NCBI GenBank assembly: GCA_963851265.1
Contig: CAWKNZ010000007.1
Coordinates: 1-64,000 of the forward strand
Direction: 5' to 3'
DNA: 64,000 bases
DNA from: an uncultured Gemmatimonadales bacterium
GTDB lineage: Bacteria; Gemmatimonadota; Gemmatimonadetes; Gemmatimonadales; Gemmatimonadaceae
This document shows, piece by piece, positions 178 through 25,209 of this stretch; positions within the stretch are counted from its first letter, which is position 1; each line of letters starts with the position of its first letter. A program made the translations under genes and the position numbers. The notes under the pieces were generated by a model, which saw nothing but the letters and a program-made list of their open reading frames with translations, ran no database searches and was not told the DNA's origin.

Positions 178-3273
<3,096 letters not shown>

Positions 3274-6700: not shown

Positions 6701-7717
6701 GCCTCCGACGGTCGCTACGCGTCGACGTACCGCGCCGTCGGACCCACTGGCGCGTGGCGGTGGGTACGCGCGACCGGGCGCGTCGAGCGCGACCCGTCGG
6801 GCGTCCCGCGGCTGCTGCGCGGCGTGAGCATCGACGTCACCGACGAGCGCGAGGTGCGGCGCCGGGCGGAGGCCGCTGAAGGCGAGTTGCGCGCGCTGTT
6901 CGCCGCGATGCGCGACGTCGTGCTCGTGCTCGACGCGAACGGCATATATCGCCGCGTCGTCCCGACGGCGCCCGGGCTGCTGTATCGTCCGGTGCGCGAC
7001 ATGGAGGGGCGGCGCATGCACGACGTGCTGCCCGCCGCCGCCGCGGACGAGTTCGTGACGGTGGTGCGGGGCGTGCTCGCGACGGGCGCGCCGACGCAGC
7101 ACGACTACGCGCTCGACCGCGACTCGGGACGGACGTACTACACGGCAAGCGTGTCGCCGGTCGGCGACGGGACGGTGCTGTGGGTGGCGCGTGACGTGAC
7201 CGCCCAGAAGCGCGCGGAATCGGCGCTGCGTGAGCTGAGCACGCGCGACGAACTCACGGGCCTGTACAACCGCCGCGGGTTCCGCATGCTCGCCGAGCAG
7301 TCGCGCGTGCTCGGCCGCCGCGAGGGGCGGCGCGACGCGGTGCTCTACATCGACCTCGATCGCTTCAAGGCGATCAACGACACCCACGGCCACGCGGCGG
7401 GCGACGAAGCCATCCAGGCCGTCGCACGCGTGCTCCGCACCACCGTCCGCGAGGGTGACCTGGTCGCGCGGTTCGGCGGCGACGAGTTCGTCGTCTACGC
7501 CGTACGTCTCGCGCACCCGGGCGAGGCGCACGTGCTCGCCGCGCGGCTGAAGGCGGCGTGTGCCCGGTTCAACGCGACCGCATCCGATGGTGCGGAGCGA
7601 CCGTGGACCATCGACTTCAGCGTGGGGGTGGCCGAAACGGAGCCGAGCGACGACCTCGATGCGTTGCTGCAGCGCGCCGACGCCGCGCTGTACGCCGAGA
7701 AGCTGACACGCTGCTGA
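3767..7717 (+). CDS. Diguanylate cyclase with multiple GAF and PAS domains
   Basis: DELTGLYNRR, ARFGGDEF, I-site REGD, N-terminal GAF (PLSHSFC, YAGVPL). Start set at ATG 3767 inside ORF 3032..7717. Confidence 0.9.
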   Translation: MPAPDPSDLTSPARLAAVEAVGVAGADAVLDRLARLTARVLGAPTALVSLVEAGRQVFPGCAGLAEPWATARGTPLSHSFCRHVVTTGKPLVVADARCDERVCANLAIADLGVIAYAGVPLVTPDGEVLGSLCVIDRAPRQWTPADVATLEDLAQGTAADLALRIVTRRLSDERTALTALLDHTEELACCTGADGRFTFVNREWQRALGYSMADAAGLTPLDLVAPEDAGRVRAVIRQLLAGETVREFEAVLVARDGRRLACRGWAVPQMRAGPDGTPVCDGTRMGVRDVTAEREAEAARARLAGALDASPDFAALVGAGGRLLYLNRAGRRLIGLPEHADLASVSLADLHPDDAFARVLAEAIPSVEQHGAWSGDSVLLAAAGTPVPVAVTMVGHVTTDTLGPPLVISVVARDLRERARGEVALRASEKRAREAEARFRAALDASPDAFYLLEVVRDGDGAVADFTFVEVNAAAGSLYGLSPDDLIGHTLGTVFPHAREAGSVIESFRTAVDGGTPYHGEYRTRDPRAVAGWLWLQVVPIRTGDGPVTGLAVTARDVTARKRADGEARLALTVTRALADVSDADGALAAALGAMCEASGVPYAEAWVPEARGPVFDRGTGAGLPEGDLVLVRGPAWYDRNDQRLADFAAAAAAFRFSAGEGLPGRAAASGTATWRADSSADGQSRHATLAQEAGLRSALAVPLVVDGVLVAVLAFHTGNAATFGDAERALLAAVGTQVGTAVRQRLVKAALARERAFLAATLESLSDGVVACDATGNLVLFNRASREFHGLPEVALPPDEWTAHYNLYRADGVTPLPMEEIPLQRAFRGEEVHDAEMAIAPTGQAPRLIRASGRPIHAANGDVLGAVAAMRDVTEHVRVETALREREAELRLTQDAAGMRGWTLDLATNRLTLAPGAHDVVHFGDEAVADDTAGADDATAAAGARTASVVLGGARTRASIHPEDLAQADADLAAALTASDGRYASTYRAVGPTGAWRWVRATGRVERDPSGVPRLLRGVSIDVTDEREVRRRAEAAEGELRALFAAMRDVVLVLDANGIYRRVVPTAPGLLYRPVRDMEGRRMHDVLPAAAADEFVTVVRGVLATGAPTQHDYALDRDSGRTYYTASVSPVGDGTVLWVARDVTAQKRAESALRELSTRDELTGLYNRRGFRMLAEQSRVLGRREGRRDAVLYIDLDRFKAINDTHGHAAGDEAIQAVARVLRTTVREGDLVARFGGDEFVVYAVRLAHPGEAHVLAARLKAACARFNATASDGAERPWTIDFSVGVAETEPSDDLDALLQRADAALYAEKLTRC

Positions 7718-7804
7718 GCGCGCCGGCCGGGTGACGTCCGCTCGTGTCGGGACGTCCCGTGCGTGGTGACCAAGGCGTCACCGCGTGCCTCCCTCGCCCT
7801 CTCC

Positions 7805-10800
7805 ATGCCCGCACCTCACCCGGCCGCCGCCGCGTCGCTCCGCGACGAGGCGCGCCTCGCCGCCGTCCGGCGTACCGCGCTGCTCGACACCGCCGCGGAC
7901 GAGGCGTTCGACCGGTTCACGCGCCTCGCCGCGCGACTGTTAGGCACGCCCGCGACCCTGGTGACGCTGCTCGACGCGGACCGGCAGTTCTGCAAGAGCG
8001 CGGTCGGACTCGACATGCCCCCGGCGCCGGAGCCGGCGCCGTCGCTGCCGCTCTCGCATTCGTTCTGCCAGCACGTGGTCGCGTCGGGCGCGCCGCTCGT
8101 GCTCGACGACGTGCGGAACGACGCCGTGCACGGCGCGAACGGCGCGGTTCGCGATTTCGGCGCGGTGGCGTACGCCGGCGTGCCGCTGCGGACGGCCGAC
8201 GGGCACGTCGTCGGCACGTTCTGCGCGCTCGACCGCGTGCCGCGCGCGTGGGACCCGGCGGACGTGGCGGTGCTCGAAGACCTCGCGCGGGCGGTGGTCA
8301 CGGAGATCGAGCTGCGGATGGCGCTGCGCGCAGCGGAGACGGCGCGCGAAACCGCGCGCGTGCTCCTCGACGCGAGCCCGGACGCGTTCGTGGCGATCGA
8401 TGCCCAGGACCGCGTGACGTTCATGAGCGAGCTCGCCGGACGGATTCACGCCTGCGATCCGATCGCCGCCGTCGGGCGGTCGCTGCACGGGTTGCTTCCT
8501 GCGGGCGATCGTGCGGTCGCGACGGCGCTCCACGCGCGCGTCCGGTCCACGGGCGCGCCGGCCGATATCGAAATGCTCTCGCGCGGTGCGGACGCCTCGG
8601 GCGAGCGCTGGACGGCCATGCACGCAGTCCCGAGTGGGACGGGGGGCGTCGCAATCGCGCTCCGCGACGTCACCGAGCGCCGGAACGCGGAGAACGCGTT
8701 GCGCGAGCGCGAGGCCGTACTGCGGCAGTTCGTCGAGCACACGCCGGCGGCGGTGGCGATGTTCGACCGGGAGATGCGCTACCTGGTGGCGAGCCGGCGG
8801 TGGTGCACCGATTACGGGCTCGCCGCGTCCGGGTTCACGACGGAAACGCTCGTCGGGACCGCCCACCACCTCGCGTTCCCCTACGCGCCCACGGGGTGGC
8901 AGGCGAACTACGCCCGCGTCCTCGCGGGGGACGTGGTGCGCTGCGAGGACGACACGTTCACGCGCGGCGACGGCGCGGTGGAACACGTGCGGTACGAGAT
9001 CCGCCCGTGGACGACCGGCGACGGCGCGGTGGGCGGCGTCGTCATGTTCACCGAGCTGACGACCGCGCAGGTGCGGGCGCAGGCGGAACTGCGCACGAGC
9101 GAGGCGCGCTACCGCGCACTCACCGAGAGTTCACCCGAACCCATCTACCTGCACCGCGACGGCCGCGTGCTGTACGCGAACCCGGCGGGCGCACGGCTGC
9201 TCGGCGCGCCGAGCCCCGCAGCGCTCGTGGGGGCGTCGGTGCTCAACGTCTTCCACGCCGACGACGCCGCGGCGGCGCGCGAGCACCTGGACGCACTCAC
9301 GCGCGGCGAGCCGCAGGACGGACTGTACCGCTACCGCCTCCTACGGGCCGACGGGTCGGAAGTGGAGGTCGAGTCGGTTTCCGCCCTCGTCCAGCTCGAC
9401 GGCTCGCCGGCCCTGCAGACGCTCTTCCGCGACGTGACCGAGCGCAACGCGCTCGAGCGCGAACTCACCTACCAGGCGTTCCACGACCCGCTCACCGGGC
9501 TCGCCAACCGGGCGCTGTTCCGCGACCGACTCGGCCACGCGCTCGCGCGGCTCGCGTCGGGGCGCATCGACCCGGCGGCCCACCAGCTCGCGGTCATCTA
9601 CCTCGACCTCGACGATTTCAAGACGGTCAACGATTCGTTAGGCCACGCGCACGGCGACGCGCTGCTGCGCGAGGTCGCGGCGCGGCTGCTGCGCGCCACC
9701 CGCGGCTGCGACACGGTCGCGCGCCTCGGCGGTGACGAGTTCGCGGCGCTGCTCGAGGGGATGACCTCCGCGTCCGACGCGCTCACCGTGGTGGAGCGGA
9801 TCACCGCGTCGCTTGCCGCCCCCGTGTGGATGGACGGCCGCGAGCTGCCCGCGCGCGGGAGCGTGGGCGTCGCGTACGCCCGCGGCGACGAGAGCGCCGA
9901 CGACCTCCTCCGCAACGCGGACGTCGCCATGTACCGCGCGAAGTCGCTCGGCAGGGGCCGACACGCCGTGTTCGAGCCCGGCATGCACGCCGCGCTCGTC
10001 GCGCGGTTGGAGATGGAGGCGGACCTGCGCCACGCCGTCGACCGCCCGGCCGCGGGCGGGCTGTGGGTGGCGTACCAGCCGGTGATCGACATCGCGACCG
10101 GGTGCGTCGTCTCGTTCGAGGCGCTCGCGCGGTGGACGCGGCCGAACGGCGCCGTGGTCCCGCCGCTGGAGTTCGTGCCGCTCGCCGAATCGAGCGGCCT
10201 CATCGTCCCGCTCGGGCGCTGGGTGTTGGGCGAGGCGTGCGCGCAGGCGGCGCGCTGGCGTGCGGCGACGGGGTGCGACGTGCGCGTCGCCGTGAACGTG
10301 TCGGCCCGGCAGCTCGCGCAGTCGGCGGGACTCGCGGGCGACGTGGAGTGCGCGCTCGCCGCGGCCGGACTGCCGGCGGCCGCACTCACCCTCGAGATGA
10401 CCGAAAGCGTGCTGATGCAGCGGACCGACGAGACGTTAGTCCGCCTCGGCGCGCTCAAGGCGACGGGCGTGCAGCTCGCGATCGACGACTTCGGCACCGG
10501 CTACTCGTCGCTCGCGTACCTGCAGCGATTCCCCGTCGACGTGCTGAAGATCGACAAGGCGTTCGTCGACGGCGTGGCGGACGAGGAGGGCGACCGCGCG
10601 ATCGCGCGCACGGTGCTCGCGCTCGGCGAGTCGCTCGGGCTGCGCATCGTCGCGGAGGGGGTGGAACGGGTGGAGCAGCGCGACGCCCTCGCCGCGATGG
10701 GCTGCGCGCAGGGGCAGGGCTACCTCTTCGCGCGCCCGCTCGCCGCGGCCGAGGCGGGGGACGTGCTCCGCACCCTCGGCGCGCGCGACCTCACGCCCGC

Positions 10801-10807
10801 GGACTGA
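7805..10807 (+). CDS. GAF-PAS-GGDEF-EAL c-di-GMP cyclase/phosphodiesterase
   Basis: HDPLTGLANR, ARLGGDEF with RGCD I-site, FEALARW, IDDFGTGYSSL, LKIDKAF; start ATG 7805. Confidence 0.92.
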   Translation: MPAPHPAAAASLRDEARLAAVRRTALLDTAADEAFDRFTRLAARLLGTPATLVTLLDADRQFCKSAVGLDMPPAPEPAPSLPLSHSFCQHVVASGAPLVLDDVRNDAVHGANGAVRDFGAVAYAGVPLRTADGHVVGTFCALDRVPRAWDPADVAVLEDLARAVVTEIELRMALRAAETARETARVLLDASPDAFVAIDAQDRVTFMSELAGRIHACDPIAAVGRSLHGLLPAGDRAVATALHARVRSTGAPADIEMLSRGADASGERWTAMHAVPSGTGGVAIALRDVTERRNAENALREREAVLRQFVEHTPAAVAMFDREMRYLVASRRWCTDYGLAASGFTTETLVGTAHHLAFPYAPTGWQANYARVLAGDVVRCEDDTFTRGDGAVEHVRYEIRPWTTGDGAVGGVVMFTELTTAQVRAQAELRTSEARYRALTESSPEPIYLHRDGRVLYANPAGARLLGAPSPAALVGASVLNVFHADDAAAAREHLDALTRGEPQDGLYRYRLLRADGSEVEVESVSALVQLDGSPALQTLFRDVTERNALERELTYQAFHDPLTGLANRALFRDRLGHALARLASGRIDPAAHQLAVIYLDLDDFKTVNDSLGHAHGDALLREVAARLLRATRGCDTVARLGGDEFAALLEGMTSASDALTVVERITASLAAPVWMDGRELPARGSVGVAYARGDESADDLLRNADVAMYRAKSLGRGRHAVFEPGMHAALVARLEMEADLRHAVDRPAAGGLWVAYQPVIDIATGCVVSFEALARWTRPNGAVVPPLEFVPLAESSGLIVPLGRWVLGEACAQAARWRAATGCDVRVAVNVSARQLAQSAGLAGDVECALAAAGLPAAALTLEMTESVLMQRTDETLVRLGALKATGVQLAIDDFGTGYSSLAYLQRFPVDVLKIDKAFVDGVADEEGDRAIARTVLALGESLGLRIVAEGVERVEQRDALAAMGCAQGQGYLFARPLAAAEAGDVLRTLGARDLTPAD

Positions 10808-11423
10808 CCGGCGGGTCGAGATTGCGCCGCGCCCACCACACGCGCTGCGCGACGGTGACGTAGACGAGCGCGGCCATGAGGCCGAACAGCTCGGGCAGGC
10901 GCGCCGGGAGCGCGAGAAAGAGGGCGTAGAAGAGCACCGTTTCGGTGCCCGCGATGAGCCCTGGGGGCATCGTCACGGTCGTCAGCTCGCCGCGCGCCGC
11001 CGCGCCCGCGGCGCGCCGTTCGAGCACGGCCGAGAGGTACATCCACGACGCCGCGTTCACGAAGAACGAACCGACGAGCCCCACGCACGCGGCGAGCGCG
11101 GCGAACGTCGGACGGCCGAGCGCCAGGCCGGTCGGCACGGCGGCGTAGACGACGAAGTCGAGGAGGATGTCGAGATACCCGCCGAAGTCGGTCTGCCGCC
11201 CGTGCACGCGCGCGAGCGTGCCGTCGAGACCGTCGAGCAGGCGGTTGGCGGCCCAGAGCGCGAGCGCGGCGCCGTACTCCCGACGCCACGCCGCCGCGCC
11301 GCACGCGAGCCCGACGAGGCAGGCGAGGAACGTGACGCCGTCGGGCGCGACGCGCGGGCCGAGCAGGCGGGCGAGCGGCTCGAGGAGGCGGTCCTTGAGC
11401 GCGCGGAGGACGTCGTCGAACAC
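10791..11423 (-). CDS. CDP-alcohol phosphatidyltransferase family protein (YnjF-like)
   Basis: Signature DGLDGTLAR..GRQTDFGGYLDILLD, hydrophobic helices, GTET motif near the C-terminus; last gene of the ABC operon. Confidence 0.88.
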   Translation of the reverse strand: MFDDVLRALKDRLLEPLARLLGPRVAPDGVTFLACLVGLACGAAAWRREYGAALALWAANRLLDGLDGTLARVHGRQTDFGGYLDILLDFVVYAAVPTGLALGRPTFAALAACVGLVGSFFVNAASWMYLSAVLERRAAGAAARGELTTVTMPPGLIAGTETVLFYALFLALPARLPELFGLMAALVYVTVAQRVWWARRNLDPPVSPRA

Positions 11424-11439
11424 GACCGGCGGCGTTACG

Positions 11440-12528
11440 TCAGGCAGAGCCGGTCGCGAAGACCGGGATCCGGGGCGCGTCGGCGACGACGCCGACGGCG
11501 GCGCCGGGCGCGGGCGCGGCCCCAGGCGGAGCGGCCGCTTCGACGACCGCCGGCGCGAAGCCGTCGCGGACGACGCGGAGCCGCACCGTGGTCTGGCGCG
11601 CGCGGTGCCGCACGTCGACCACGGTCGCCGCCGCCGCGCCCGGGTGACCCGGGGGGACGAGGCGGAGCGCGTCGGGGCGGACGACCGCCGCCGCGGGGCC
11701 GGCGGCCGCGCCGACGGCCCAGCTGCCTAACGCACACGCGAAGCACCCGGCCCCGTCGACGGTGCCCGCGAGCTCCGCGCCGACGCCGAGGAATCGCGCC
11801 ACGGCGAGCGACGCGGGGCGCTCGAACAACTCGGCCGGCGGTGCGACCTGCAGCACGCGCCGTTCGGCGAGCACCGCGACGCGGTGGGCGAGCAGTCCGG
11901 CCTCGTCGAGGTCGTGCGTGACGAGCACGAGGGACGGGCGCGCGGAGGCCGGGGCCTGCGTCCCCTCCTGCGCGCGCACGATGGCCTCGCGCACGTCGTC
12001 GCGCAGCGACGGGTCGAGCGCGGCGAGCGGCTCGTCGAGCAGCAGCACCGCGGGGCGCGCGACGATGGCGCGCGCGAGCGCGACGCGGTGGCGCTGACCG
12101 CCACTCAGCGTGTGCGGCATCCGCGCGGCGTACTCGCCCATTCGCACGAGCTCGAGCGCGTCGCGCACGCGGCGGTCGACGTCGCCGCGCGGCACGCGGC
12201 GCACGCGCAGCGGGAAGGCGACGTTCTCGTACACACTCAGGTGCGCGAACGGCGTCGGCGTCTGGTGCAGGTAGACGGCGTCGCGTCGCTCGGGGGCGAG
12301 GGCGGTGACGTCGCGCGGCGCGGCGCCGGGTGCCGCGATCCAGATGCGGCCGGCGCGCACCGGCTCGAGGCCGGCTACCGCGCGCAGCAGCGTGGTCTTG
12401 CCAGCACCCGACGCGCCGAGGACGACGAGGCGCTCACCCGCGGCGACGTCGAGCGATACGGGCTGCAGGCCCGGGCCGCTCCCGAACCCGACCTCGACCC
12501 CGTCGAGCCGGAGCGCGGGGGCGTTCAC
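11440..12528 (-). CDS. ABC transporter ATP-binding subunit
   Basis: Walker A GASGAGKT, signature LSGGQ, Walker B LLLDEP, H-loop VTHD; GTG start overlaps the upstream TGA (GTGA). Confidence 0.9.
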   Translation of the reverse strand: MNAPALRLDGVEVGFGSGPGLQPVSLDVAAGERLVVLGASGAGKTTLLRAVAGLEPVRAGRIWIAAPGAAPRDVTALAPERRDAVYLHQTPTPFAHLSVYENVAFPLRVRRVPRGDVDRRVRDALELVRMGEYAARMPHTLSGGQRHRVALARAIVARPAVLLLDEPLAALDPSLRDDVREAIVRAQEGTQAPASARPSLVLVTHDLDEAGLLAHRVAVLAERRVLQVAPPAELFERPASLAVARFLGVGAELAGTVDGAGCFACALGSWAVGAAAGPAAAVVRPDALRLVPPGHPGAAAATVVDVRHRARQTTVRLRVVRDGFAPAVVEAAAPPGAAPAPGAAVGVVADAPRIPVFATGSA

Positions 12529-13319
12529 AGCGTCGGGACGGCGGTGCGCCGCGCGACGACGCGGGCCGCGGCGAGCGCGAGGAGCGGCGGCGCGCTCAGG
12601 AGCAGCGCGCCCGTCGCCGCGTACCGGTCCTGCCCCGAGCGCACATACGCGAACACCTCGGTCGCGAGCGTGCGTACCAGGCCGCCGCCGACGATCTGCG
12701 TGAGCGCGACCTGCGCCCAGCTCACGAGAAACGCCAGCGCGGCGGCCTCCGCGATCTGGCGGCGGAGCGCGGGGAAGGTGACGAGGCGGAGCGTCTGCCA
12801 CGGCGATGCGCCGAGCGTTCGCGCCTCCTCCTCCGGCCCGGCGTCGTACGCGGCGAACACGCCGAGGAAGTAGAGCGCGAGATAGCCGACCGCGGGCACC
12901 GCGTGGGCGAGCAGGACGCCGGCGGCGGTGCCGCCGAGGCCGAGGCGCAGGAAGTAGTACTGCACGCCGACGGCGACGGCGAGCGGCGGCGCCGCCACGG
13001 GGAGGAAGGCGAGTGCGGCGCCCAGGCCGCGCCGCCACCCGCCGAGGCCGGCGAGCGCGCGGCCGACGGGCAGGCCGAGCGCGACGCCCACCACCGCGGT
13101 GCCGGCGCCTAACGCCACGCTCCGTGCGGCGGCGACCCCGAGCGCACCGCCGGCGACCTGACGCCAACTCTCCGCGGTGAGCCCGGACGGCACGAGCGCG
13201 GGATAGAACCACGTCTCGCCGACGGACCAGGCCACGAGCAGGCCGAACGGCGTGAGGGCGGAAGTGGCGAGCAGCGTGACGAGGATTGCGCGCCCGGCGC
13301 GCGCGAGCGCGGGACTCAC
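12525..13319 (-). CDS. ABC transporter permease 2
   Basis: Hydrophobic, EAA loop EEEARTLGASPWQTLRLVTFP; GTGA coupling at both ends. Confidence 0.88.
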   Translation of the reverse strand: MSPALARAGRAILVTLLATSALTPFGLLVAWSVGETWFYPALVPSGLTAESWRQVAGGALGVAAARSVALGAGTAVVGVALGLPVGRALAGLGGWRRGLGAALAFLPVAAPPLAVAVGVQYYFLRLGLGGTAAGVLLAHAVPAVGYLALYFLGVFAAYDAGPEEEARTLGASPWQTLRLVTFPALRRQIAEAAALAFLVSWAQVALTQIVGGGLVRTLATEVFAYVRSGQDRYAATGALLLSAPPLLALAAARVVARRTAVPTL

Positions 13320-14185
13320 GCGCCGTCGCGTGCGGCGCCGCGCGTCGCCCACTCGTGCGCCGCGACGGCGGCCGCGGCGAGCAGCAGAGCGAGCAGCGTG
13401 AGCACGTACGCTCCGCCGCGTCGGCCGAGGTCGAGATCGGCGTGGCGCTCGCGGATGAGCGACTGGAGCGGGAGCGGGTCGCTCGGCCCGAGCAGCGCGG
13501 CGGCTTCGTAGCTTCCCGCGACGAATGCGAACACCGCGACGGCCGACGGGAGCAGCGCGCGCCAGAGCAGCGGCCACGTGACGCGCCGGAGTACGGCCCA
13601 CGGCGCGGCGCCGAGCGTGCGCGCGGCCTCCTCGGCGGCGGCACCGCGCGCGGCGAGCGCCGAGCCCGCGACGAGCGCGAGGAAGGGGCACTCCTTCCAC
13701 GCGAGGGCGGCGACGAGTCCCACGCCCCACCGGTCGTAGACGAGGGGCGGCATCGCCTGCGGCGCGGCGATGAGGCCGGCGGCGTGGCCGAGCCGTGCGA
13801 GCAACCCGCTCTGGCCCAGGATCAGCACGGCCGACGACGCCGCGACGACCTGCGGGATGGGCAGCGGCACGACCGCGAGCGCGCGCGCGACGCGGTCGAC
13901 GGCGCGCGTGCCGCGGAAGGTGGTCGCGACGACGGTCGCGGCGGCCGTGGCGAGTGCGGTGGCGAGCAGCGCGGTGCGCAGCGTCCACGCGACCGACGCC
14001 CACGTGCGCGGATCGCCGAGCACGCCGCCGAGCAAGGCCGTGGTGAAGCCGGCGGCGCCGACGCCCGCGAGGCCCACGGCGACCGCGGCCGAGTACGCGA
14101 TGCCGACGAGCACGGGGGTGGCGACGAGGAGCGCGGCGACGAGCGGAGCGCCGCTCGACCGCGCGTGGCGTTGGGCCGGGCTCAC
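13316..14185 (-). CDS. ABC transporter permease 1
   Basis: Hydrophobic, EAA loop EEAARTLGAAPWAVLRRVTWP, WKECPF motif; GTGA coupling. Confidence 0.88.
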   Translation of the reverse strand: MSPAQRHARSSGAPLVAALLVATPVLVGIAYSAAVAVGLAGVGAAGFTTALLGGVLGDPRTWASVAWTLRTALLATALATAAATVVATTFRGTRAVDRVARALAVVPLPIPQVVAASSAVLILGQSGLLARLGHAAGLIAAPQAMPPLVYDRWGVGLVAALAWKECPFLALVAGSALAARGAAAEEAARTLGAAPWAVLRRVTWPLLWRALLPSAVAVFAFVAGSYEAAALLGPSDPLPLQSLIRERHADLDLGRRGGAYVLTLLALLLAAAAVAAHEWATRGAARDGA

Positions 14186-15468
14186 CGGGCCCGCACGCGG
14201 GCGCGCCAGTCCGTCAGCAGCCGCTCGCTGTAGGCTGGCGCGACCTCGGGGCGCGCGTAGGCGGCGAGCGTGTCGGGCGGGATCGCGTCGGCCGCGCGCG
14301 CGACGGAGTCGAACCGCGCGCGCCACGCGGCCGGCAGTCGCGTGCGGGCGAGCACCGTGCCGTCGGCCCAGACCTCGGGGCGCTGCTTCTCGAACTGGGC
14401 TTCGGGCGACAGGAGGAAATCGGCGACGACCATACCGCCCGCCGCGTCGGGGGCGTTGTACGGGATGGCAAGGTAGTGGGCGTTCGCGATGGTGCCCTCA
14501 CGGAGCAGGACGGCGCGCGCGGTGCGCGGAAGCACCCCCTGGCGCACCTTCGTCACCACGTCGTTCTGGTTGTTGGACATGGTGAAGTCGACCTCGCCGT
14601 TGGCGAAGAGGCGGTGCAGGTCGGCGACGCCTTCGGGGTACGTCACGCCGCCGCGCCAGAACGCGGCGCGATTGGAGTCGATCCAGGCAAATACCGCCGC
14701 GCGGCCGGCGAGGTAGTCGGCCTCGCGGAAGCCGCCCGCGAATCGGCGCACCCCGCCCCCGCGCGCGTACATCAGCCCTTTCAGGAACGTGAGCCCGGTG
14801 AAGCTCTGGTCGTGCACGAAGCGCCCCGGGTGCGCGCGGACGTAGGCGCCGAGTTCCGCGTACGTGCGTGGCGGTCGCGGCGTGCGGACGGTGTCGTAGA
14901 TGAGCGCGAACTGCACCGTCCCCCACGGGCTCTCGAACCCCGCCGGGTCCTGCTCGAAGTCCCGGCTGATGATCGGCGACGCGCTGTCGACGTACACGCC
15001 GTTGGGCGCGCGCGCCGCCCACGGCCCGAACAGCAGCGCCGCGCGGCGCAGGTTGGCGAACGCCTCGCCGTTGACCCAGACGAGGCTCGAGGTGCCGACC
15101 GCGCGTCCGGCGTCGCGTTCGACCACGAGGTCGTTCACGAGTTCGGCGCCCTGCCCGTCGACCGGCCTGAGCGTGATACCGTAGCGCTGCTTCACGCGCG
15201 GCGCGACCCAGCCGTCGACGAACGCGTTGATGGACGGGTCGCCGCGCCACATCGTCCAGACGACGGTCGTCCCACGGGCGCGCGCCACGATCGAGTCCCA
15301 CGGCAACGTGGCGGCCTGCCGAGGCGACAGGCGCGCGGCGGGCGGCGCGTTCGGCCGGCTGCATGCGCCGGATGCAGCCGTCGCGGCCGCGAGCGCCGCG
15401 GCGATGATCCGCCGGCGCCACGGTACAGGAAGGGTCGGCCGGAGTTCCGTGGATGACGTCGACGTCAC
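14182..15468 (-). CDS. ABC transporter substrate-binding lipoprotein (YnjB-like)
   Basis: Lipobox-like ASGAC; WDSIVARARGTTV, ESPWG and GTIANAHYLAIPYNA..FLLSPEAQ motifs recalled from the YnjB family. Start uncertain (GTG 15468 or ATG 15543). Confidence 0.8.
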   Translation of the reverse strand: MTSTSSTELRPTLPVPWRRRIIAAALAAATAASGACSRPNAPPAARLSPRQAATLPWDSIVARARGTTVVWTMWRGDPSINAFVDGWVAPRVKQRYGITLRPVDGQGAELVNDLVVERDAGRAVGTSSLVWVNGEAFANLRRAALLFGPWAARAPNGVYVDSASPIISRDFEQDPAGFESPWGTVQFALIYDTVRTPRPPRTYAELGAYVRAHPGRFVHDQSFTGLTFLKGLMYARGGGVRRFAGGFREADYLAGRAAVFAWIDSNRAAFWRGGVTYPEGVADLHRLFANGEVDFTMSNNQNDVVTKVRQGVLPRTARAVLLREGTIANAHYLAIPYNAPDAAGGMVVADFLLSPEAQFEKQRPEVWADGTVLARTRLPAAWRARFDSVARAADAIPPDTLAAYARPEVAPAYSERLLTDWRARVRAR

Positions 15469-15651
15469 GAGGAGGTTCGGGAGGGTGAGCGCGGACGCGT
15501 CTAGCGAGATTCGTGCGACATCGCGTCCCGGTCCCGCTACCATCCGTTCTCCTGCGGCAATCGTAATCAAGCAGGTGCGCTCCGCGCCGACTGCCCTCCG
15601 CCCCACGCGCGCTTCTCCGTGCTCGTCACCCGTCCTCCCCGTCGCGGCTCC

Positions 15652-18519: not shown

Positions 18520-18577
18520 TGGCACCTCTCGTGTCTCGATCGACGCGCCGCGTGCTCCCGGATGGGGGCTCGCTCGC

Positions 18578-19045
18578 GTGACGGAGCGGGCGACCGTCAC
18601 GGCGCGCTTCGCCGCGGGCGCGGTCGGCGTCCTCACGGCGCACCAGGCTGCCGTATGGGCGCTGCACCGCGCGGGCGTGGTGCCGTGGCCCGCGTACTCG
18701 GTGGTGCCGACGCGGCCGTTCGGCGTCCCGCAGGTGCTGTCGGCGGCCTTCTGGGGGGGCGTGTGGTGGGTCGCGCTCGGGCCGGTCGTCGAGCGTGCCG
18801 AATCGCGCGCGGGCTACGCGGCGCGCGCGGCCGTGTTTGGCGCGGTGCTGCCGACGGCCGTGGGGGCGGTGCTCGTGGCGGCCGGGCGCGGGGCCCCGCG
18901 GGGCGACGCGCGCCCGGCGACGCTGCTCGCCGCCGGGCTGGCCGTGAACGCGGCCTGGGGGCTTGCCGCCGCGGCCGTGGTCTGGTTCACGCGCGCGCGA
19001 CCGCCTGGTAGCGGCGCACGAAGCGCGCGTCGATCGCGCGCTTGA
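18578..19045 (+). CDS. Hypothetical membrane protein (about 4 TM helices)
   Basis: Hydrophobic 155-aa ORF with PTRPFGVPQVLSAAFWGGVW, directly after the receptor. Confidence 0.65.
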   Translation: MTERATVTARFAAGAVGVLTAHQAAVWALHRAGVVPWPAYSVVPTRPFGVPQVLSAAFWGGVWWVALGPVVERAESRAGYAARAAVFGAVLPTAVGAVLVAAGRGAPRGDARPATLLAAGLAVNAAWGLAAAAVVWFTRARPPGSGARSARRSRA

Positions 19046-20123
19046 GCGCGAGGGCGGCGCGCGAGTGACTCGCGACGCCGCGCCAGCGGGCGAAGGCGCG
19101 CCCGTCCGCGGTGTCGAGTGCGGCCAGGAAGTGTCGCTGCGGGACGTACGCCCGCGGCGTTAGGCGCCCCCCGTCGGCGGCCGCGCGCAGGTTGTGCGCG
19201 AGCACCGGCGCCTCGCGCACCGCGTACACGCCGGCCTTGGGCACCCACGGCGCCCCGTCGAGCGCGGCGCAGTCGCCTGCGCCCCACACGCGCACGCCGC
19301 CGACCGCGCGCAGCGTGGCGTCCACGCGCAGGTACCCGCCCGCGTCGACGGGGAGCCCGGCCTCGCGCGCGAGCGGGAGCGCGGCGGCGCCTGGCACCCA
19401 CACGGTCAGGTCGGACGCGAGTCGCAAGCCGTCGGCGAGCGTGACGGCGTCGGCGTCGACGCGCACCACCGCGTGCCCGGTCAACAGCCGCACCCCGCGC
19501 CGCCCCAGCAGCCGCTGCACGCGCGCCGCCTGCCGTCCCCAACTCGGGAGCAGCGCGGGCCCCCCCTCGACGACGGTGACCTGAGCGTCGCGCCCTGCCG
19601 CGCCCGCGCGCGCGACGACGGCGAGCGAGAGCTCCACCCCGGCCGCGCCGCCGCCCACGACGACGCAGGCGAACGGGCCGACGTCCGGCTCCGTGGCGAG
19701 TGCGTCGAGCCGGGCGACGAGCGCGCGCCAGGCGGCGAGCGGGCGCACGGTGTGGGCGTGCGCGCGGGCACCGGGGACGTCGAGTGCCGCGGGAATCGAG
19801 CCGACGTCGAGCGAGAGCAGGTCGCCGGTGACGACCTCGCCGGCCGCGTGCACCGCGACCGCGTCGGGCGCGACCTCGAGGCGCGACGCCGCGGCCTCGA
19901 CGAAGCGCGCGCCGGCGGCGCGGCAGAGCGCGGGCAGGTCGACGGCGAGGGCGGACTCGACCCACGCTCCGCGGAGCTGCGCGGGCATCATCCCCGAGTA
20001 CACCTGGCGCGCGTACGGCGACACGAGCACCAACTCCGCCGCGAACGGGCGCAGCGCTGCCGCGCGGAGGACCTCGAGGTGCGCGTGCCCGCCTCCCACG
20101 AGCACGAGCCGTCGGCGCGCCAC
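18987..20123 (-). CDS. FAD/NAD(P)-dependent oxidoreductase resembling the domain found N-terminal to SelD (TIGR03169-like)
   Basis: LVLVGGGHAH, YSGMMP, VVGGGAAGVE, WGAGDCA, PKAGVYAVR, YVPQRHFL, LKRAIDARFV; start approximate. Confidence 0.82.
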   Translation of the reverse strand: MARRRLVLVGGGHAHLEVLRAAALRPFAAELVLVSPYARQVYSGMMPAQLRGAWVESALAVDLPALCRAAGARFVEAAASRLEVAPDAVAVHAAGEVVTGDLLSLDVGSIPAALDVPGARAHAHTVRPLAAWRALVARLDALATEPDVGPFACVVVGGGAAGVELSLAVVARAGAAGRDAQVTVVEGGPALLPSWGRQAARVQRLLGRRGVRLLTGHAVVRVDADAVTLADGLRLASDLTVWVPGAAALPLAREAGLPVDAGGYLRVDATLRAVGGVRVWGAGDCAALDGAPWVPKAGVYAVREAPVLAHNLRAAADGGRLTPRAYVPQRHFLAALDTADGRAFARWRGVASHSRAALALKRAIDARFVRRYQAVARA

Positions 20124-20152
20124 GTCGTTAGGCAGGGCCGGGGCGCCGCACG

Positions 20153-21706
20153 TCAGCGCACCACGCGAAAGTAGCCCGCCAACAACCCCTTGACGCGCGG
20201 CGTGAGCTTGCGCCGCCGCCACGCGTCGGCCGCCTTGCGCAGCGCCTCGCTCTGGGTGGGGTACGGGTGCATCGTGCGACCGATGGCCGAGAGGCCGAGC
20301 TTGTTGGTCATTGCGAGGGTGAGCTCGCCGATCGTCTCGCCCGCGTGTGCTCCGACGAGCGTCGCCCCGACGAGGCGGTCGGTGCCGCGGGCCACGAGCA
20401 CGCGGCAGAACCCTTCGGTCTCGTCGTCGATCACCGCACGGTCCACTTCGGCCAGGGGAACGGTGATGACGTCGACCGCGACGCCCCGGGCCGCGGCCTC
20501 CTGCTGCGTGAGGCCGACCTGGGCCACCTCGGGACTCGTGTAGGTCACCCAGGGCGTGACCAGCGCGCTCGCGCGACCGCGGCCGAAGAAGAGCGCGTTC
20601 TGCACGACGAGCCGCGCCTGGAAGTCGGCCGCGTGCGTGAACTTGAGCGGCGAGCAGACGTCGCCGACCGCGTAGACGCGCGGGTTGCTGGTGCACAGGC
20701 GGTCGTCGACGGTGACGCCGCCGCGCGCGTCGTAGTGCACCCGGGCCGCCTCGAGCCCGAGTCCGTCCACGTTCGGCGTCCGCCCAACGGCGACAAGCAG
20801 CGCGTCGGCGTCGAGCGTCAGGTCGTGTCCGGCGTGCCGCACGTGCAGACTCGCGTCGCCCCCGCGCGTGTGGACGCGCGTGACCTCGGCCCCGTGCAGC
20901 ACGTGCACGCCGTCGCGCGCGAGCGCGCGCTCCACGACTGCCGCCGCCTCCGCGTCGTCGCGCTCGAGCAGGCGTGCGCCGCGGTCGAGCAGCGTCACAC
21001 GCGCGCCGAGTCGCGCGAACGCCTGGGCGAGTTCGCAGCCGATCGGGCCCGCGCCGAGGACGACGAGGTGTGCGGGGCGGCGCGTGAGCGAGAAGATCGT
21101 CTCGTTGGTGTAGTACGGCGCATCGCGCAGGCCGGGGACGTCGGGGACGGCGGCGCGGGCGCCGGCCGCGATCACCGCGCGGCGGAACGTCAGGCGCGCG
21201 CCGTCGACCTCGACCGCGTCGGGCGCGACGAAGCGTGCGTCACCGAGGAACACGTCCACGCCGAGTTCGCGGAAGCGCGGGGCGCCGTCGACGGGGGCGA
21301 GACCGGCGCGGACGTCGCGAAGCCGCTCCATGGCCGCGACGAAGTCGCCGTCACCGTCCGCGCGCGGCCCCCCGAAGCGCTCGGCCGCGCGGCGCGCGTC
21401 GTGCCAGGCGCGCGCCGCGCGGATCACGCTCTTGGACGGGACGCACCCCACGTTGAGGCAGTCGCCGCCCATGAGGGAGCGCTCGACGAGGGCGACGCGG
21501 GCGCCGAGTCCGGCGGCGGCGGCGGCGGTGACGAGGCCACCCGTGCCCGCGCCGACGACGACGAGGTGGTAGCGGCCGGCGGGGGCCGGGTTCCGCCAAT
21601 CGCGCGGGTGCACCTGCGCGACCAGGCGCTCGTCGGCGGCGTCGCCCGCGAGGAGCGTGGGGTGGGCCGCGCCCGGGCGGCCCCCGATCGGCGGGGCCGC
21701 GCTCAT
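20153..21706 (-). CDS. Class I pyridine nucleotide-disulfide oxidoreductase (MerA/LpdA-like)
   Basis: GAGTGG, redox pair GGDCLNVGCVPSK, GAGPIGCE, HPYPTQSE; no C-terminal Cys-Cys. Confidence 0.88.
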   Translation of the reverse strand: MSAAPPIGGRPGAAHPTLLAGDAADERLVAQVHPRDWRNPAPAGRYHLVVVGAGTGGLVTAAAAAGLGARVALVERSLMGGDCLNVGCVPSKSVIRAARAWHDARRAAERFGGPRADGDGDFVAAMERLRDVRAGLAPVDGAPRFRELGVDVFLGDARFVAPDAVEVDGARLTFRRAVIAAGARAAVPDVPGLRDAPYYTNETIFSLTRRPAHLVVLGAGPIGCELAQAFARLGARVTLLDRGARLLERDDAEAAAVVERALARDGVHVLHGAEVTRVHTRGGDASLHVRHAGHDLTLDADALLVAVGRTPNVDGLGLEAARVHYDARGGVTVDDRLCTSNPRVYAVGDVCSPLKFTHAADFQARLVVQNALFFGRGRASALVTPWVTYTSPEVAQVGLTQQEAAARGVAVDVITVPLAEVDRAVIDDETEGFCRVLVARGTDRLVGATLVGAHAGETIGELTLAMTNKLGLSAIGRTMHPYPTQSEALRKAADAWRRRKLTPRVKGLLAGYFRVVR

Positions 21707-21757
21707 CGGCCGGCCCTCATGCCGCGGGCCTCGCCGGGCACTTCTGCGGCGCGCGCT

Positions 21758-22456
21758 TCACGGGGCGATGCCGGTCGGGTCGGCCGCCGTGCCTAACGCG
21801 TGGCGCGCGAGCCGCGTGATGCGCGCCGTCACGGCCGCGGTCGCGGCGAGGCCGAGCGCGAGCACGGCGTAGTACGCGGCGCCGCGCGGGGGCGTGCCGC
21901 CGCCCGCGGCGGCGGCGACGTCGCCGGCGAGCTTGCCGTAGTACACGTAGAGGAGCGTACCGGGAAGCATCCCGACCGAAGCGACGGCGAAGTCGGCGAA
22001 GCGCACGCGCGTGAGGCCGAGCACGTAGTTGAGCAGGGTGAACGGGACGGCCGGGGAGAGGCGGAGCAGGAAGACGATGCGCCGCCCGTCGCCCGCGATC
22101 GCGCGGTCGATCGCGGCGAAGCGCGCGTTGCCGGCGATGCGGCGCTCCACGAATCCGCGCGCGACGTAGCGCCCGACGAGGAACGCCGCGGACGACCCGA
22201 GAGTTGCCCCGACGAACACCCAGAGCGTGCCGGCCGCGAGCCCGAAGATTGCTCCGGCCGCGAGGGTGAGCAGCGAACCCGGGATGCCGGCGACGGTGGC
22301 GACCACGTAGCCGACGACGAACGCGATCGGCCCCCACGCCCCCATGGCGTGCACGCGCTCGGCGAAGCCCGGCACGTAGTGGCCGCCCCAGCGGCCGAGC
22401 AGGAGCAGCCCGGCAACGGCGGCGACACCGAGAAGAATGCGGAAGGGTTTGGCCAT
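21758..22456 (-). CDS. TVP38/TMEM64 (VTT/DedA superfamily) membrane protein
   Basis: IPGSLLTLAAGAIFG, AFLVGRY, LLRLSPAVPFTLLNY, GMLPGT. Confidence 0.9.
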   Translation of the reverse strand: MAKPFRILLGVAAVAGLLLLGRWGGHYVPGFAERVHAMGAWGPIAFVVGYVVATVAGIPGSLLTLAAGAIFGLAAGTLWVFVGATLGSSAAFLVGRYVARGFVERRIAGNARFAAIDRAIAGDGRRIVFLLRLSPAVPFTLLNYVLGLTRVRFADFAVASVGMLPGTLLYVYYGKLAGDVAAAAGGGTPPRGAAYYAVLALGLAATAAVTARITRLARHALGTAADPTGIAP

Positions 22457-22632
22457 GCCCGTAGATGCCCGGTTCACAATCCAACAGATTGCAGCACACG
22501 TATACCAGCACAGACGTCTCCGTCGCCAGGCGTGACGGGACCGTCACCCCTGGCGACGCTCGGAACATCCGCCCGCCGCCCGCACCTTCATCTAGCGTCC
22601 GGCACGCGCCGGCGTATTCGACGAGGCACGAC

Positions 22633-23487
22633 ATGCGCCACCCCGCCGTTCGCCGACCCGCCGCCCGATCGCGCGTGCGCGCCCGCCTGCTGGCCGTCGC
22701 GCTGCTGACCGTCGGCATCCTTCGTCCCGCCGCGCCCGTGCACGCGCAGGATCGCACTTTCGACCACGGCGCGTTCGACGCGCTCCTCAAGGCGCACGTG
22801 CGCAACGGGCTCGTCGACTACGACGCGTTCGCCGCCTCAGCGGAGTTCAAGCGCTACCTGGGCCGGCTCGCCGCCACGGACCCGGCCACGCTCGGGCGCG
22901 ACGATCAGCTCGCGTTCTGGATCGACGCGTACAACGCGTACACGATCGCGCTCATCAACGAGCACCACGAGCGCGAGTCGATTCGCAACATCAACAAGAC
23001 GCTCGGGTTCGTGAAGGCGTACGGGCCCTGGAAGGAGAAGCTCGCGACGGTCGGAGGAAGGAGCTACGGGCTGGACGAGATCGAGCAGGACATCATCCGC
23101 CCGCGCTACCACGAGCCGCGCGTGCACTTCGCGCTCGTCTGCGCCGCGATGGGGTGCCCGCCGCTGCGCAGTGAGGCGTACACGGGGGCGCAGCTCGACG
23201 CGCAACTCGACGACCAGGCCCGCCGGTTCCTGCTCCACTCGCCGACCAAGAACCGCGTCGACGTCGCGAGCAAGACGGTGTACCTGAGCCCGATCTTCGT
23301 CGAATTTCGCGACTACATCAAGGACTTCGGCGGGTCCGAGGGCGCGGTGGGCCGGTACATCGCGCGCTTCTACCCGGCGGGCCCGGAGCGGACGCTGCTC
23401 GAGGGCGGCGACTTCAAGGTCGTGAAGACCCACTACGACTGGACGCTGAACAGCCAGTCCAACGGCGCGCGCGTCGCGGCGCGGTAG
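22633..23487 (+). CDS. DUF547 domain exported protein
   Basis: Signal peptide (VHA-Q), GLVDY, LAFWIDAYNA, PRVHFALVCAAMGCPPL, YDWTLN. Confidence 0.85.
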   Translation: MRHPAVRRPAARSRVRARLLAVALLTVGILRPAAPVHAQDRTFDHGAFDALLKAHVRNGLVDYDAFAASAEFKRYLGRLAATDPATLGRDDQLAFWIDAYNAYTIALINEHHERESIRNINKTLGFVKAYGPWKEKLATVGGRSYGLDEIEQDIIRPRYHEPRVHFALVCAAMGCPPLRSEAYTGAQLDAQLDDQARRFLLHSPTKNRVDVASKTVYLSPIFVEFRDYIKDFGGSEGAVGRYIARFYPAGPERTLLEGGDFKVVKTHYDWTLNSQSNGARVAAR

Positions 23488-23489
23488 CC

Positions 23490-24923
23490 GTGGCGACCGC
23501 GAAGTCACTGCTCGACACCGTCCGCCGGCCGGTGGGCGACGAGGCCCGCGCGTTGCTCGCCCGCAACTGGGGCGGGCTCGCGCCCGAGATGCGCGTGCCG
23601 CAGCAGATGTTCGGCCGGCAGGGCAACGGCTGCGGCGCGACCATCGGCGCGATGCCGCGCTGCGACTTCGCGTGCCGCGGCTGCTACCTGAACGCCGACG
23701 CGAACCGCGCCCCGGCCGAGTCGGTCGAGGCGATCAAGGGGCAGATGCGGCTGCTGCGCCCGGTGTTGGGCCACGCCGGCAACCTGCAGATCACCGACGG
23801 CGAGGTCACGCTCCGCCCCGCCGAGGAGGTCGTCGAGCTGCTGCGCTACGCGCGGTCGCTCGACCTCATCCCGATGCTGATGACGCACGGCGACTCGTTC
23901 CGCCGGCGCCCGGGGCTGCTGGAACGGCTCATGGTCGAGGGCGGGCTCACCGAGGTGAGCATCCACGTCGACACGACGCAGCGCGGGCGGCAGGGCGAGC
24001 GGTGGCGCGCGGCGCGCACCGAGGCCGAGCTGAACCCGCTCCGCGCCGAGTTCGCCGAGATGATCCGCGCGGCGGAGCGCGCGACCGGGCGCGTCTTGCG
24101 GGCGGCGACTACGATGACCGTGACGCGCGACAACCTCGACGGGGTGACCGACGTGGTGCGCTGGGTGACGGCGCACGCCGACGCGTTCCGACTCGTCAGC
24201 TTCCAGCCGATCGCGCAGGTCGGGCGCACCGAGGAGGCCTACGGCGGCGGCGTCGACGTCGAGGCCCTGTGGGACCGGGTGGCCGTGGGGCTCGGCGTCG
24301 ACGGCGGGTCGGCGCGCATGGCCGAGCTGGGCGTGTGGTTCGGCCACCAGGCGTGCAACCGGATGGTGAACGGCGTCGTGGTGCGCGGCCCCGCCGGCGG
24401 GACGGCGTTTCACGCGCTGCGTGACGCGCGCAGCGACGTCGACACCCGCATCGTGGACGGGTTCCTGGCGCGGTTCGGCGGGATCTCGTTCCGACTCGAT
24501 ACGGCGCGCGAGCGTACGGCGCGGCTCGCGGGCGTGGCGCGCGCGGCGCCGGGCTTCGTCTTCGGCAACCTCGTGCCCTACGCGGCGCACTGGCTGCGGC
24601 GCGTGGGGCGGGGGAGCGCCGTGCGCGGCGCGTGGCACCTCGCGACGCGGCGCGCGACCGCGCAGCCGCTCGTGCTCGTGAGCCACCACTTCATGAGCCG
24701 CGAGGAGATCGAGACCCCGTTAGGCCGCGAGCGGCTGGCGCACTGCGTGTTCCAGGTGCCCGTCGACGGCGAGCTCGTGTCGATGTGCGAGGTGAACGCG
24801 CTCGGCATCCGCGAGCGGTACTACGCGCAGCTCGGGCGGACGCGGGCCGGGCGCGGGCCGGGCGGGACGGCGGCGTCCCCCGCGAACGCGGCCGCCGCGG
24901 AGGGGTTGCCGGGGACGGCGTGA
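23490..24923 (+). CDS. Radical SAM protein of unknown function
   Basis: CxxxCxxC motif CDFACRGC; additional Cys in HQAC and C-x13-C near the C-terminus. Confidence 0.85.
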   Translation: MATAKSLLDTVRRPVGDEARALLARNWGGLAPEMRVPQQMFGRQGNGCGATIGAMPRCDFACRGCYLNADANRAPAESVEAIKGQMRLLRPVLGHAGNLQITDGEVTLRPAEEVVELLRYARSLDLIPMLMTHGDSFRRRPGLLERLMVEGGLTEVSIHVDTTQRGRQGERWRAARTEAELNPLRAEFAEMIRAAERATGRVLRAATTMTVTRDNLDGVTDVVRWVTAHADAFRLVSFQPIAQVGRTEEAYGGGVDVEALWDRVAVGLGVDGGSARMAELGVWFGHQACNRMVNGVVVRGPAGGTAFHALRDARSDVDTRIVDGFLARFGGISFRLDTARERTARLAGVARAAPGFVFGNLVPYAAHWLRRVGRGSAVRGAWHLATRRATAQPLVLVSHHFMSREEIETPLGRERLAHCVFQVPVDGELVSMCEVNALGIRERYYAQLGRTRAGRGPGGTAASPANAAAAEGLPGTA

Positions 24924-24987: not shown

Positions 24988-25209
24988 GTGGCTCGCCCCG
25001 TCGGTCTCCGCAACACGATCGTCTTCGCGATCGGCGTCGTCATGATGGCGCTCGGCGCGTACGTCGTGGCGCACCCGCTCTGGTCGGGCGGGCACACCGT
25101 GACCGAGTCGCGACTCCTGGACGCGATGCTCGCGCTGTTCTTCCTCGTGCGCGGGTGGATGAACGTGCGCACGTCGACGGGCCGCCCGCTGTTCGGGGTG
25201 CGGCCGTGA
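24988..25209 (+). CDS. Small two-helix membrane protein
   Basis: 73 aa, two hydrophobic segments, stop overlaps the next GTG. Confidence 0.55.

Follow-up and report, generated by a model that had tools for sequence, protein, structure and literature searches.

The stretch of DNA analysed here, referred to as the window, comprises 64,000 nucleotides (70–78% GC) from an uncultured Gemmatimonadales bacterium (genome G000, 94% complete) and contains a cluster of twelve genes at positions 10791–24923. These encode a TonB-dependent receptor, an ATP-binding cassette (ABC) importer with its substrate-binding protein (SBP), a YnjF-type CDP-alcohol phosphotransferase, two flavoproteins, a TVP38-type membrane protein, a DUF547 protein, a radical SAM enzyme and a small membrane protein. 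The cluster is real and conserved and represents an extended variant of the ydjX–ynjF module of Escherichia coli, with a core made up of the importer, YnjF, the reductase, TVP38 and DUF547, the radical SAM enzyme being optional. As to function, comparison of gene content suggests that the cluster could salvage a glycerol arsenosugar and join it to CDP-diacylglycerol, giving an arsenosugar phospholipid; this reading is given not quite an even chance.

Conservation of the cluster

A scan of GTDB with an alignment of the radical SAM enzyme gave 332 relatives, and all locus counts rest on the best 80 of these, which lie mostly in Gemmatimonadota with some in Acidobacteriota, Alphaproteobacteria and Planctomycetota and one in Methylococcaceae; 34 of the 80 loci span at least 15 kb. 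Genome counts were made with 52 genomes carrying the radical SAM enzyme, namely 50 of the 80 source genomes, picked for long contigs and diversity, together with two relatives of the same genus (G001 and G004). The control set consisted of 28 relatives that lack the enzyme and are at least 90% complete, one row of which (G011) is an unpublished genome, and evenly drawn samples of 251 Pseudomonadota and 150 Gemmatimonadota genomes were also compared.

Two of four same-genus genomes carry the radical SAM gene, as do 6 of 40 relatives, one of these six being a weak match. The complete gene order is retained in both G001 and G004, which argues that it is not a product of chance. Of the 80 loci, 65 have DUF547 next to the radical SAM gene (33/34 of those of at least 15 kb), 33 have TVP38 (22/34), 28 a MerA-like reductase (22/34) and nine a SelD-N-like gene. 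Between the two flavoprotein genes, where the window has no insertion, G004 holds an ArsR-ArsM pair (L012:13357–14705) and G001 an alpha/beta hydrolase gene (L014:13661–14740). It should also be noted that the radical SAM gene at L074:10001–11246 and the SBP gene at L119:8935–10153 are each split in two frames in one metagenome-assembled genome, through either sequencing error or decay to a pseudogene.

The preliminary description of this DNA, made from its letters alone, had treated the import genes and the redox and radical SAM genes as two halves of one system, and this is upheld. In nine of the 80 loci a TonB receptor gene and a YnjF-type gene run straight into the radical SAM gene in one direction, and YnjF-type genes were present in 32 of the 52 radical SAM genomes as against none of the 28 control relatives, in a survey of the 52 made with a single-protein query that may miss distant homologs outside Gemmatimonadota. 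Seven of the nine loci have a sodium:solute symporter in place of the ABC system of the window; as the transporter is exchanged while the receptor and YnjF stay, it is expected that a single imported solute serves YnjF. Among 20 fetched YnjF regions, 15 showed a co-directional series of receptor, SBP, two permeases, ATPase and YnjF with the receptor gene first, and a MerA-like gene was in range in nine of the 20 and TVP38 in eight.

That the two halves are instead unrelated neighbours, an importer for a common solute such as a polyamine, thiamine, iron or a sugar phosphate lying next to a separate redox and radical SAM set, is considered improbable. The ATPase and permeases score best with PhnT-, PotA- and ThiP-type models, all under their cut-offs, the Foldseek list for the SBP includes AfuA, FutA and PotD, and YnjF and the radical SAM gene, some 15 kb apart in G063 and G064, are separated by 2.5 Mb in G045. 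Such a chance meeting is, however, at odds with the YnjF counts given above and with the nine receptor–YnjF–radical SAM loci with another transporter type, as well as with the joining of the halves in E. coli and in Gammaproteobacteria (L149, L150); nor was a riboswitch or any other RNA family detected at gathering score between positions 9000 and 27000.

A radical SAM step as an obligate part of the system did not hold up. The 150 Gemmatimonadota genomes included three with the radical SAM gene and eight with YnjF, with only one having both, and obligate coupling of the enzyme to the importer was accordingly rejected. All seven YnjF regions lacking the radical SAM gene have a receptor, with an ABC system in three and a symporter in four, and they hold a MerA-like gene in six cases, TVP38 in five, DUF547 in three and a fatty acid hydroxylase in two. 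Since seven of the eight evenly sampled YnjF genomes lack the enzyme and the core is kept, the enzyme is classed as optional.

Arsenosugar-annotated genes and the proposed salvage

A link to genes annotated for arsenosugar synthesis, which the preliminary description had offered, proved to be real, with the radical SAM gene and the core adjoining ArsS, TIGR04169, TIGR04283 and DUF2064 in other loci. Beside the radical SAM gene in the 80 loci were ArsS in three, TIGR04283 in nine, DUF2064 in six, TIGR04169 in four and a nucleoside hydrolase in seven. Loci such as L072, L078 and L091 place it by ArsS (438 bits, cut-off 300), TIGR04169 (183, cut-off 120) and TIGR04283 (197, cut-off 182). TIGR04283 (230 bits, same cut-off) is even fused to a distant member of the radical SAM family in protein P0247, while two further family hits, P0164 and P0217, carry DUF547. 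Of 11 regions fetched from the 44 Gemmatimonadota genomes with TIGR04283, five contained MerA-like, TVP38, DUF547, TIGR04283 and DUF2064 genes together. A separate cluster in G001 comprises ArsS, TIGR04169, an ArsM-like gene, MTAP, the TIGR04283 transferase and DUF2064, and an ArsR-family gene precedes the receptor gene in L039, L041 and L044.

The source genome itself has no ArsS (best 31.6 versus 300 bits), TIGR04283 (best 77 versus 182) or DUF2064 at the family cut-offs, which favours salvage over synthesis de novo as had been argued at the outset. The related claim that the window has neither ArsM nor a glycosyltransferase also stands for the hits seen; an ArsM (NF008823, 354 bits, cut-off 263) lies on another contig (C9), within an ArsR-ArsM-ArsN2-ArsN1a resistance locus (L130:8608–11153).

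The main evidence for salvage is the way in which YnjF and the arsenosugar genes avoid each other. The TIGR04283 transferase, paired with TIGR04282/DUF2064, was the transferase counted across genomes. Within the 52 radical SAM genomes, 30 had YnjF only, 16 had TIGR04283 only, two had both (11.1 expected) and four had neither, one of these four having a partial transferase gene at a contig end. YnjF and ArsS occurred together once (6.2 expected), and the 40 Gemmatimonadota rows of this set gave two genomes with both YnjF and TIGR04283 (5.6 expected). The 251 Pseudomonadota genomes contained YnjB in 20, YnjF in 27, TIGR04283 in 128 and ArsS in 103. YnjF was present in 18 of the 20 YnjB genomes versus 9 of the 231 others, ArsS in none of the 27 YnjF genomes (11.1 expected) versus 103 of the 224 others, and TIGR04283 in four of the 27 (13.8 expected) versus 124 of the 224. 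The 150 Gemmatimonadota genomes had TIGR04283 in 44 and ArsS in 15, with neither in the eight YnjF genomes, so that ArsS was absent from all 35 YnjF genomes of the two evenly drawn samples. In 20 regions within 9.5 kb of YnjB, YnjF was found in 11, TIGR04283 with DUF2064 in four and both in none. Scavenging is proposed because genes annotated for arsenosugar synthesis are missing from most carriers of the module.

Each of these four TIGR04283–DUF2064 regions also has a gene of a kinase-like cluster, with membership of the APH family confirmed in two of the three scanned. In loci L132, L133, L143/L092 and L145 the partners of YnjBCD are TIGR04283, DUF2064 and an APH-like kinase in place of YnjF; these loci could possibly represent a third route in which a free 5-substituted ribose is imported and fed to the transferases.

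Several observations weigh against arsenosugar salvage. Related genomes are not independent of one another. In a quick radical SAM tree of 53 rows, four independent pairs on supported branches gave on average 2.7 opposite and 0.0 same outcomes, so that with phylogenetic control the either/or pattern is not significant (sign test, p 0.25). YnjF and TIGR04283 are independent of each other in the ArsS-negative Pseudomonadota (four versus 5.3 expected), and the ArsS genomes of that phylum may simply represent a few clades. The exclusion in the Gemmatimonadota sample is not significant either (p 0.11 for TIGR04283, p 1.0 for ArsS). YnjF occurs together with genes of the ArsS/TIGR04283 side in G001, G050, G114, G169, G278 and G333, and many of the genomes compared are incomplete metagenome-assembled genomes. 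The ArsM of the G004 cluster is a resistance-type enzyme that may be a passenger. The predicted fold of the SBP (pLDDT 93.8) matches binders of glycosides, glycerophosphodiesters, sugar phosphates, polyamines and iron in a tie (Z 28.2–26.5), the sulfoquinovosyl-glycerol binder being within the tied set at Z 27.4. In addition, arsenosugars are described as rarely reported for terrestrial foods (PMC11626214). Finally, 31 of the 44 Gemmatimonadota genomes with TIGR04283 lack ArsS, and the "arsenosugar" label of that family is therefore an annotation by association.

This last point bears on an unlikely but serious alternative, in which the imported solute would be a non-arsenic 5-substituted riboside or polyol, for instance a 5-methylthio, 5-deoxy, seleno or sulfur analogue that stems from by-products of SAM, with TIGR04283 and TIGR04282 acting as general 5-X-ribosyl transferases for which an arsenosugar is one product. 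TIGR04283 without ArsS in those 31 genomes and in 29 of the 128 Pseudomonadota genomes, the recurrence of nucleoside hydrolase, MTAP and APH-family kinase genes in the loci, a SelD-N-like gene and rhodaneses nearby and PrdB-like proteins with an in-frame TGA (7/7) are all consistent with it. Against it, TIGR04283 accompanies ArsS in 99 of 103 Pseudomonadota and 13 of 15 Gemmatimonadota ArsS genomes, ArsM and ArsR recur in the loci, and for a seleno compound SelD is wanting: it was not found in the source genome (best 59 versus 125 bits) or in seven of ten other YnjF genomes, being present in three, which makes a selenophosphate route unlikely.

The nucleoside hydrolase gene directly follows the radical SAM gene in L083:11382–14282, L088, L094, L096, L098 and L100. 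In L083 and L088 it is followed by a second DUF547 gene and an APH-family kinase, which presumably resembles methylthioribose kinase. In all seven PrdB-like reductase genes checked (L039:9050–9790, L041, L044, L063, L036, L156 and L160, on the minus strand), the in-frame TGA has the context VPV-U-P-x-C; these genes lie beside YnjF or TIGR04283 and, judged by this context, likely encode selenoproteins. G053, the genome from which L039 comes, gave no SelD match.

Import of organoarsenicals for breakdown or detoxification, through reduction, C–As cleavage by the radical SAM enzyme and export, with YnjF working in reverse or as a carrier step, is judged improbable. Reductases, ArsR, ArsM and the PrdB-like reductase are indeed among the neighbours, and the genome has its separate ArsR-ArsM-ArsN locus. 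Breakdown is, on the other hand, difficult to reconcile with the same core in ArsS-containing producer clusters, with the absence of the radical SAM gene from most sampled YnjF genomes (7/8) or with recurring neighbours of the radical SAM loci among which no arsenite efflux family appears.

Under the salvage reading, the receptor and the ABC system, or the sodium symporter in relatives, would import 2,3-dihydroxypropyl 5-deoxy-5-dimethylarsinoyl-riboside made by other microbes. YnjF would then join the free primary alcohol of this sugar to CDP-diacylglycerol with release of CMP, and TVP38 would shift the resulting arsenosugar phospholipid across the inner membrane. The PRK06370-type reductase, DUF547 and the SelD-N flavoprotein might control whether the arsenic is present as As(V) or As(III), or else the thiol state, and the lipid might be modified on an acyl chain or at its reduced arsenic by the optional Tes-like radical SAM enzyme. 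Arsenosugar phospholipids are described as phosphate arsenosugars acylated on the end glycerol, which degrade to the glycerol arsenosugar (PMC11626214), and the proposed condensation would therefore form just such a lipid, together with CMP. In producers the lipid would be reached through ArsM, ArsS, a kinase acting with a nucleoside phosphorylase or hydrolase, DUF2064 and TIGR04283, and the steps from TVP38 onwards would be shared; ArsS is reported to make DDMAA from DMA(III) (PMC13598754; PMC8552651).

A wider proposal, for which the chances are regarded as slim, is that the ynj module, that of E. coli included, is a widespread cross-feeding route to arsenosugar phospholipid, and that the Tes-like enzyme works on an acyl chain whose terminal carbon, once activated, is held at an auxiliary cluster with His/Cys ligands and then linked either to reduced arsenic or to another chain. 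Arsenic fatty acids and hydrocarbons, or a cross-linked arsenolipid, would in that case have in this enzyme the source that is missing for them.

Genes and predicted proteins of the cluster

Family scans placed every gene named in the preliminary description at its position with its family. Eleven of the twelve genes had been listed; the one overlooked (18578–19045, plus strand) encodes a hydrophobic membrane protein of 155 aa with 71–74% identity to its counterparts in G004 and G001. It had no match in Pfam or NCBIfam, its ESM Atlas matches were unnamed clusters only (0.95) with a low recognition score, and its homologs adjoin the radical SAM module in L083 and L088.

The importer genes lie on the minus strand. 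The SBP (14182–15468), a likely lipoprotein, belongs to the YnjB family (NF008633/PRK11622, 365 bits, cut-off 203) with 35% identity to YnjB. It had no sequence relative in the PDB, where a profile search gave one weak match to an iron SBP. Permease 1 (13316–14185; PF00528) corresponds to the N-terminal half of YnjC (29% to residues 96–238) and permease 2 (12525–13319; PF00528), with an EAA-like loop, to the C-terminal half (28% to residues 368–501). The ATPase (11440–12528; PF00005), the counterpart of YnjD (33%), has Walker A, LSGGQ and Walker B motifs. These four genes are joined by three 4-nt GTGA overlaps, as the claim of a translationally coupled operon required, whereas the transferase gene that had been included in it lies 16 nt beyond the ATPase gene without overlap. 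Divergent from this operon is the gene for the TonB-dependent receptor (15652–18519, plus strand; PF25183, PF13620, PF00593), which has an N-terminal carboxypeptidase-regulatory-like domain. The start codons of the SBP, receptor and SelD-N-like genes are uncertain by some codons.

The YnjF-type transferase (10791–11423, minus strand; 210 aa) matches PF01066 (47 bits, cut-off 22) and is 38% identical to E. coli YnjF. It contains an intact DG-x2-AR-x8-G-x3-D-x3-D motif, which we take to be the catalytic motif of CDP-alcohol phosphotransferases, with D64, D67, G68, A71, R72, G81, D85 and D89 invariant in 17 rows. It falls under every NCBIfam cut-off (best 75 versus 180 bits), and an assignment as phosphatidylcholine synthase Pcs was rejected (NF045886, 21 bits, cut-off 440). 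In profile searches DIPP synthase (4MND, E 4e-14) and AF2299 ranked first, followed by PI(P) synthases (E 5e-10), and it is therefore closest to polyol-accepting enzymes. This ranking could also indicate a soluble phosphodiester as product, for example phosphate arsenosugar formed from CDP-glycerol in the manner of DIPP synthase. Such a product is doubtful, since the partners of YnjF are a VTT protein, an enzyme with a lipid-synthase fold and, in relatives, fatty acid hydroxylases, and no cytidylyltransferase was found in the cluster or among the recurring neighbours in the radical SAM loci, though the genome itself was not searched for a glycerol-phosphate cytidylyltransferase. Formation of a lipid by salvage is preferred here.

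Fatty acid hydroxylases (PF04116) lie beside YnjF or the TVP38/DUF547 core in L149:13605–14435, L150, L051:2583–3440, L123:8372–9061, L154 and L155. These loci mostly have no nearby radical SAM gene, L051 having both, and the hydroxylase could possibly be an oxygen-dependent counterpart.

The TVP38, disulfide reductase and SelD-N-like genes form a minus-strand unit divergent from DUF547 and the radical SAM gene on the plus strand, the latter two being 2 nt apart. The TVP38/VTT protein (21758–22456; PF09335, 99.5 bits) is of the YdjX/YdjZ type within the DedA superfamily (31% to YdjX, 30% to YdjZ). Slr0305 has been described as clustering with YdjX and YdjZ (PMC3836016), and lipid transport activity is known for other DedA/VTT members (PMC10193950). 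The flavoprotein disulfide reductase (20153–21706) is of the PRK06370 type (NF004991, 724 bits, cut-off 620) and contains the sequence GGDCLNVGCVP at residue 80. An identity as MerA was rejected, with TIGR02053 scoring 404 against 454 bits and the last Cys at position 434 of 517; the C-terminal Cys pair, which we take to be the defining feature of MerA, is missing. The FAD-dependent oxidoreductase (18987–20123) is SelD-N-like, resembling the N-terminal part of SelD fusion proteins (TIGR03169, 298 bits, cut-off 310), and has no SelD domain. The DUF547 protein (22633–23487; PF04784, 95 bits) has a signal-peptide-like N-terminus and a CxxxxC motif, CAAMGC, at residue 170.

The radical SAM enzyme (23490–24923; PF04055) contains the CX3CX2C motif (C58, C62 and C65) and, in the alignment, invariant C48, C289, C419 and C433. 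A profile search matched it to 7TOL (E 1e-23), and its predicted structure (pLDDT 92.7) to GDGT-MAS, by Foldseek with E 6.5e-15 and TM 0.56 and by VIA with Z 29.0 (rmsd 3.6, 347 residues aligned), the next fold having Z 17.2. Because this fold match is far above the others, a lipid is the likely substrate of the modelled enzyme. C289, C419 and C433 align with cysteines of 7TOL and would be auxiliary-cluster ligands, and His399 aligns with the labile Met439 of Tes if a numbering offset of 20 residues is assumed. No Tyr occupies the Tes Tyr459 column in the alignment with 7TOL. Tes is described as having the N-terminal ligands C9/C12/C33/H36 (rubredoxin) and C73/C77/C80/His ([Fe4S4]N) (PMC9433317). 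Neither motif was found in the window enzyme, which has just one Cys (C48) before the SAM motif. With an NF045702 score of 55.7 bits against a cut-off of 450 as well, it was rejected as a true Tes.

The enzyme does not match TIGR04167 (ArsS). A role as substitute for ArsS was rejected as the principal interpretation, the two genes being adjacent in L072, L078, L091 and L159 and the source genome having no TIGR04283; such a role may still apply in TIGR04283-positive, ArsS-negative genomes such as G078 and G084. Another radical SAM family, weakly Rv1681-like (101 versus 380 bits), occurs with a metallophosphoesterase in L036:4306–5286, L076:13647–14534, L049, L160 and L168, and in TIGR04283 loci without ArsS it is a candidate ArsS substitute.

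A scan of the cluster region for sigma-70 promoters found none, and the five terminators predicted (3.0 expected) were uninformative. The cluster is preceded at 3032–10807 by two large GAF/PAS GGDEF(-EAL)-like proteins, recognised by motif reading; the second gene overlaps the stop of YnjF by 17 nt and adjoins YnjF in G004 too. It is followed by Rid-family, DUF937 and RND-type efflux proteins (25155–26410 and 26602–29781), the DUF937 gene being found also in G004 and not in G001.

Comparison with known systems

The YnjF-type protein shares its signature motif and best profile matches with the branch of DIPP synthase, AF2299 and the PI(P) synthases (4MND, 4O6M, 6H53, 5D92), from which it is set apart by missing all NCBIfam cut-offs. 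The radical SAM enzyme resembles Tes/GDGT-MAS (7TOL, 7TOM; NF045702) in its fold, C-terminal Cys residues, HFM motif and amphipathic helices in the C-terminal part. It differs in being bacterial, with 18–19% identity, and linked to arsenosugar-annotated genes, and in having His for Met439 and lacking Tyr459, the rubredoxin and the C73/C77/C80 motif. It belongs to the bacterial relatives of Tes, for which PMC9433317 leaves the reactions open.

In its logic, the proposed salvage resembles ChoXWV with Pcs, the alternative to PmtA, in that a ready head-group alcohol is imported by an ABC system and linked directly to CDP-diacylglycerol; choline uptake with a CDP-alcohol transferase is described as an alternative to de novo synthesis (PMC8371380). 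YnjF is, however, nearer to inositol and polyol enzymes, and the SBP of the window is of the YnjB type.

With the arsenosugar set (ArsM, ArsS TIGR04167, TIGR04169, TIGR04282/DUF2064 and TIGR04283) the cluster shares DUF547, TVP38, MerA-like and sometimes radical SAM neighbours, whereas the source genome has an importer and YnjF in place of ArsS, TIGR04283 and DUF2064; the steps after ArsS in this set are annotations. A literature search that did not cover subscription papers found no paper tying YnjB or YnjF to arsenosugars and none naming ynjB and ynjF together. Ocean lipidomics has led to the suggestion that arsenosugar phospholipids have a bacterial source (bioRxiv 10.1101/2021.03.22.436501, which gives a fragment of m/z 409.024 as diagnostic), and the salvage reading, if true, would supply the lipid-forming step. 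It would also imply deliberate uptake of organoarsenic by bacteria and communities that fall into two groups, producers with ArsS and TIGR04283 and scavengers with the receptor, YnjBCD and YnjF.

The likeness to the ydj–ynj region of E. coli, already proposed in the preliminary description, is confirmed by homologs of TVP38, YnjB, YnjC (here as two halves), YnjD and YnjF together in the window at 28–38% identity to the products of ydjX-ydjY-ydjZ-ynjA-ynjB-ynjC-ynjD-ynjE/ynjF of strain K-12. YdjY and YnjA had no match in the source genome with the E. coli queries, and its YnjE-like rhodanese lies 380 kb from the cluster. The window in turn adds the TonB receptor, MerA-like reductase, SelD-N flavoprotein, DUF547 and radical SAM enzyme. 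The E. coli genes are reported to be activated by FNR (PMC3688515) and weakly induced by BaeR (PMC2731931). For these nine unassigned E. coli genes, and for their relatives in several phyla, the salvage reading offers a testable proposal.

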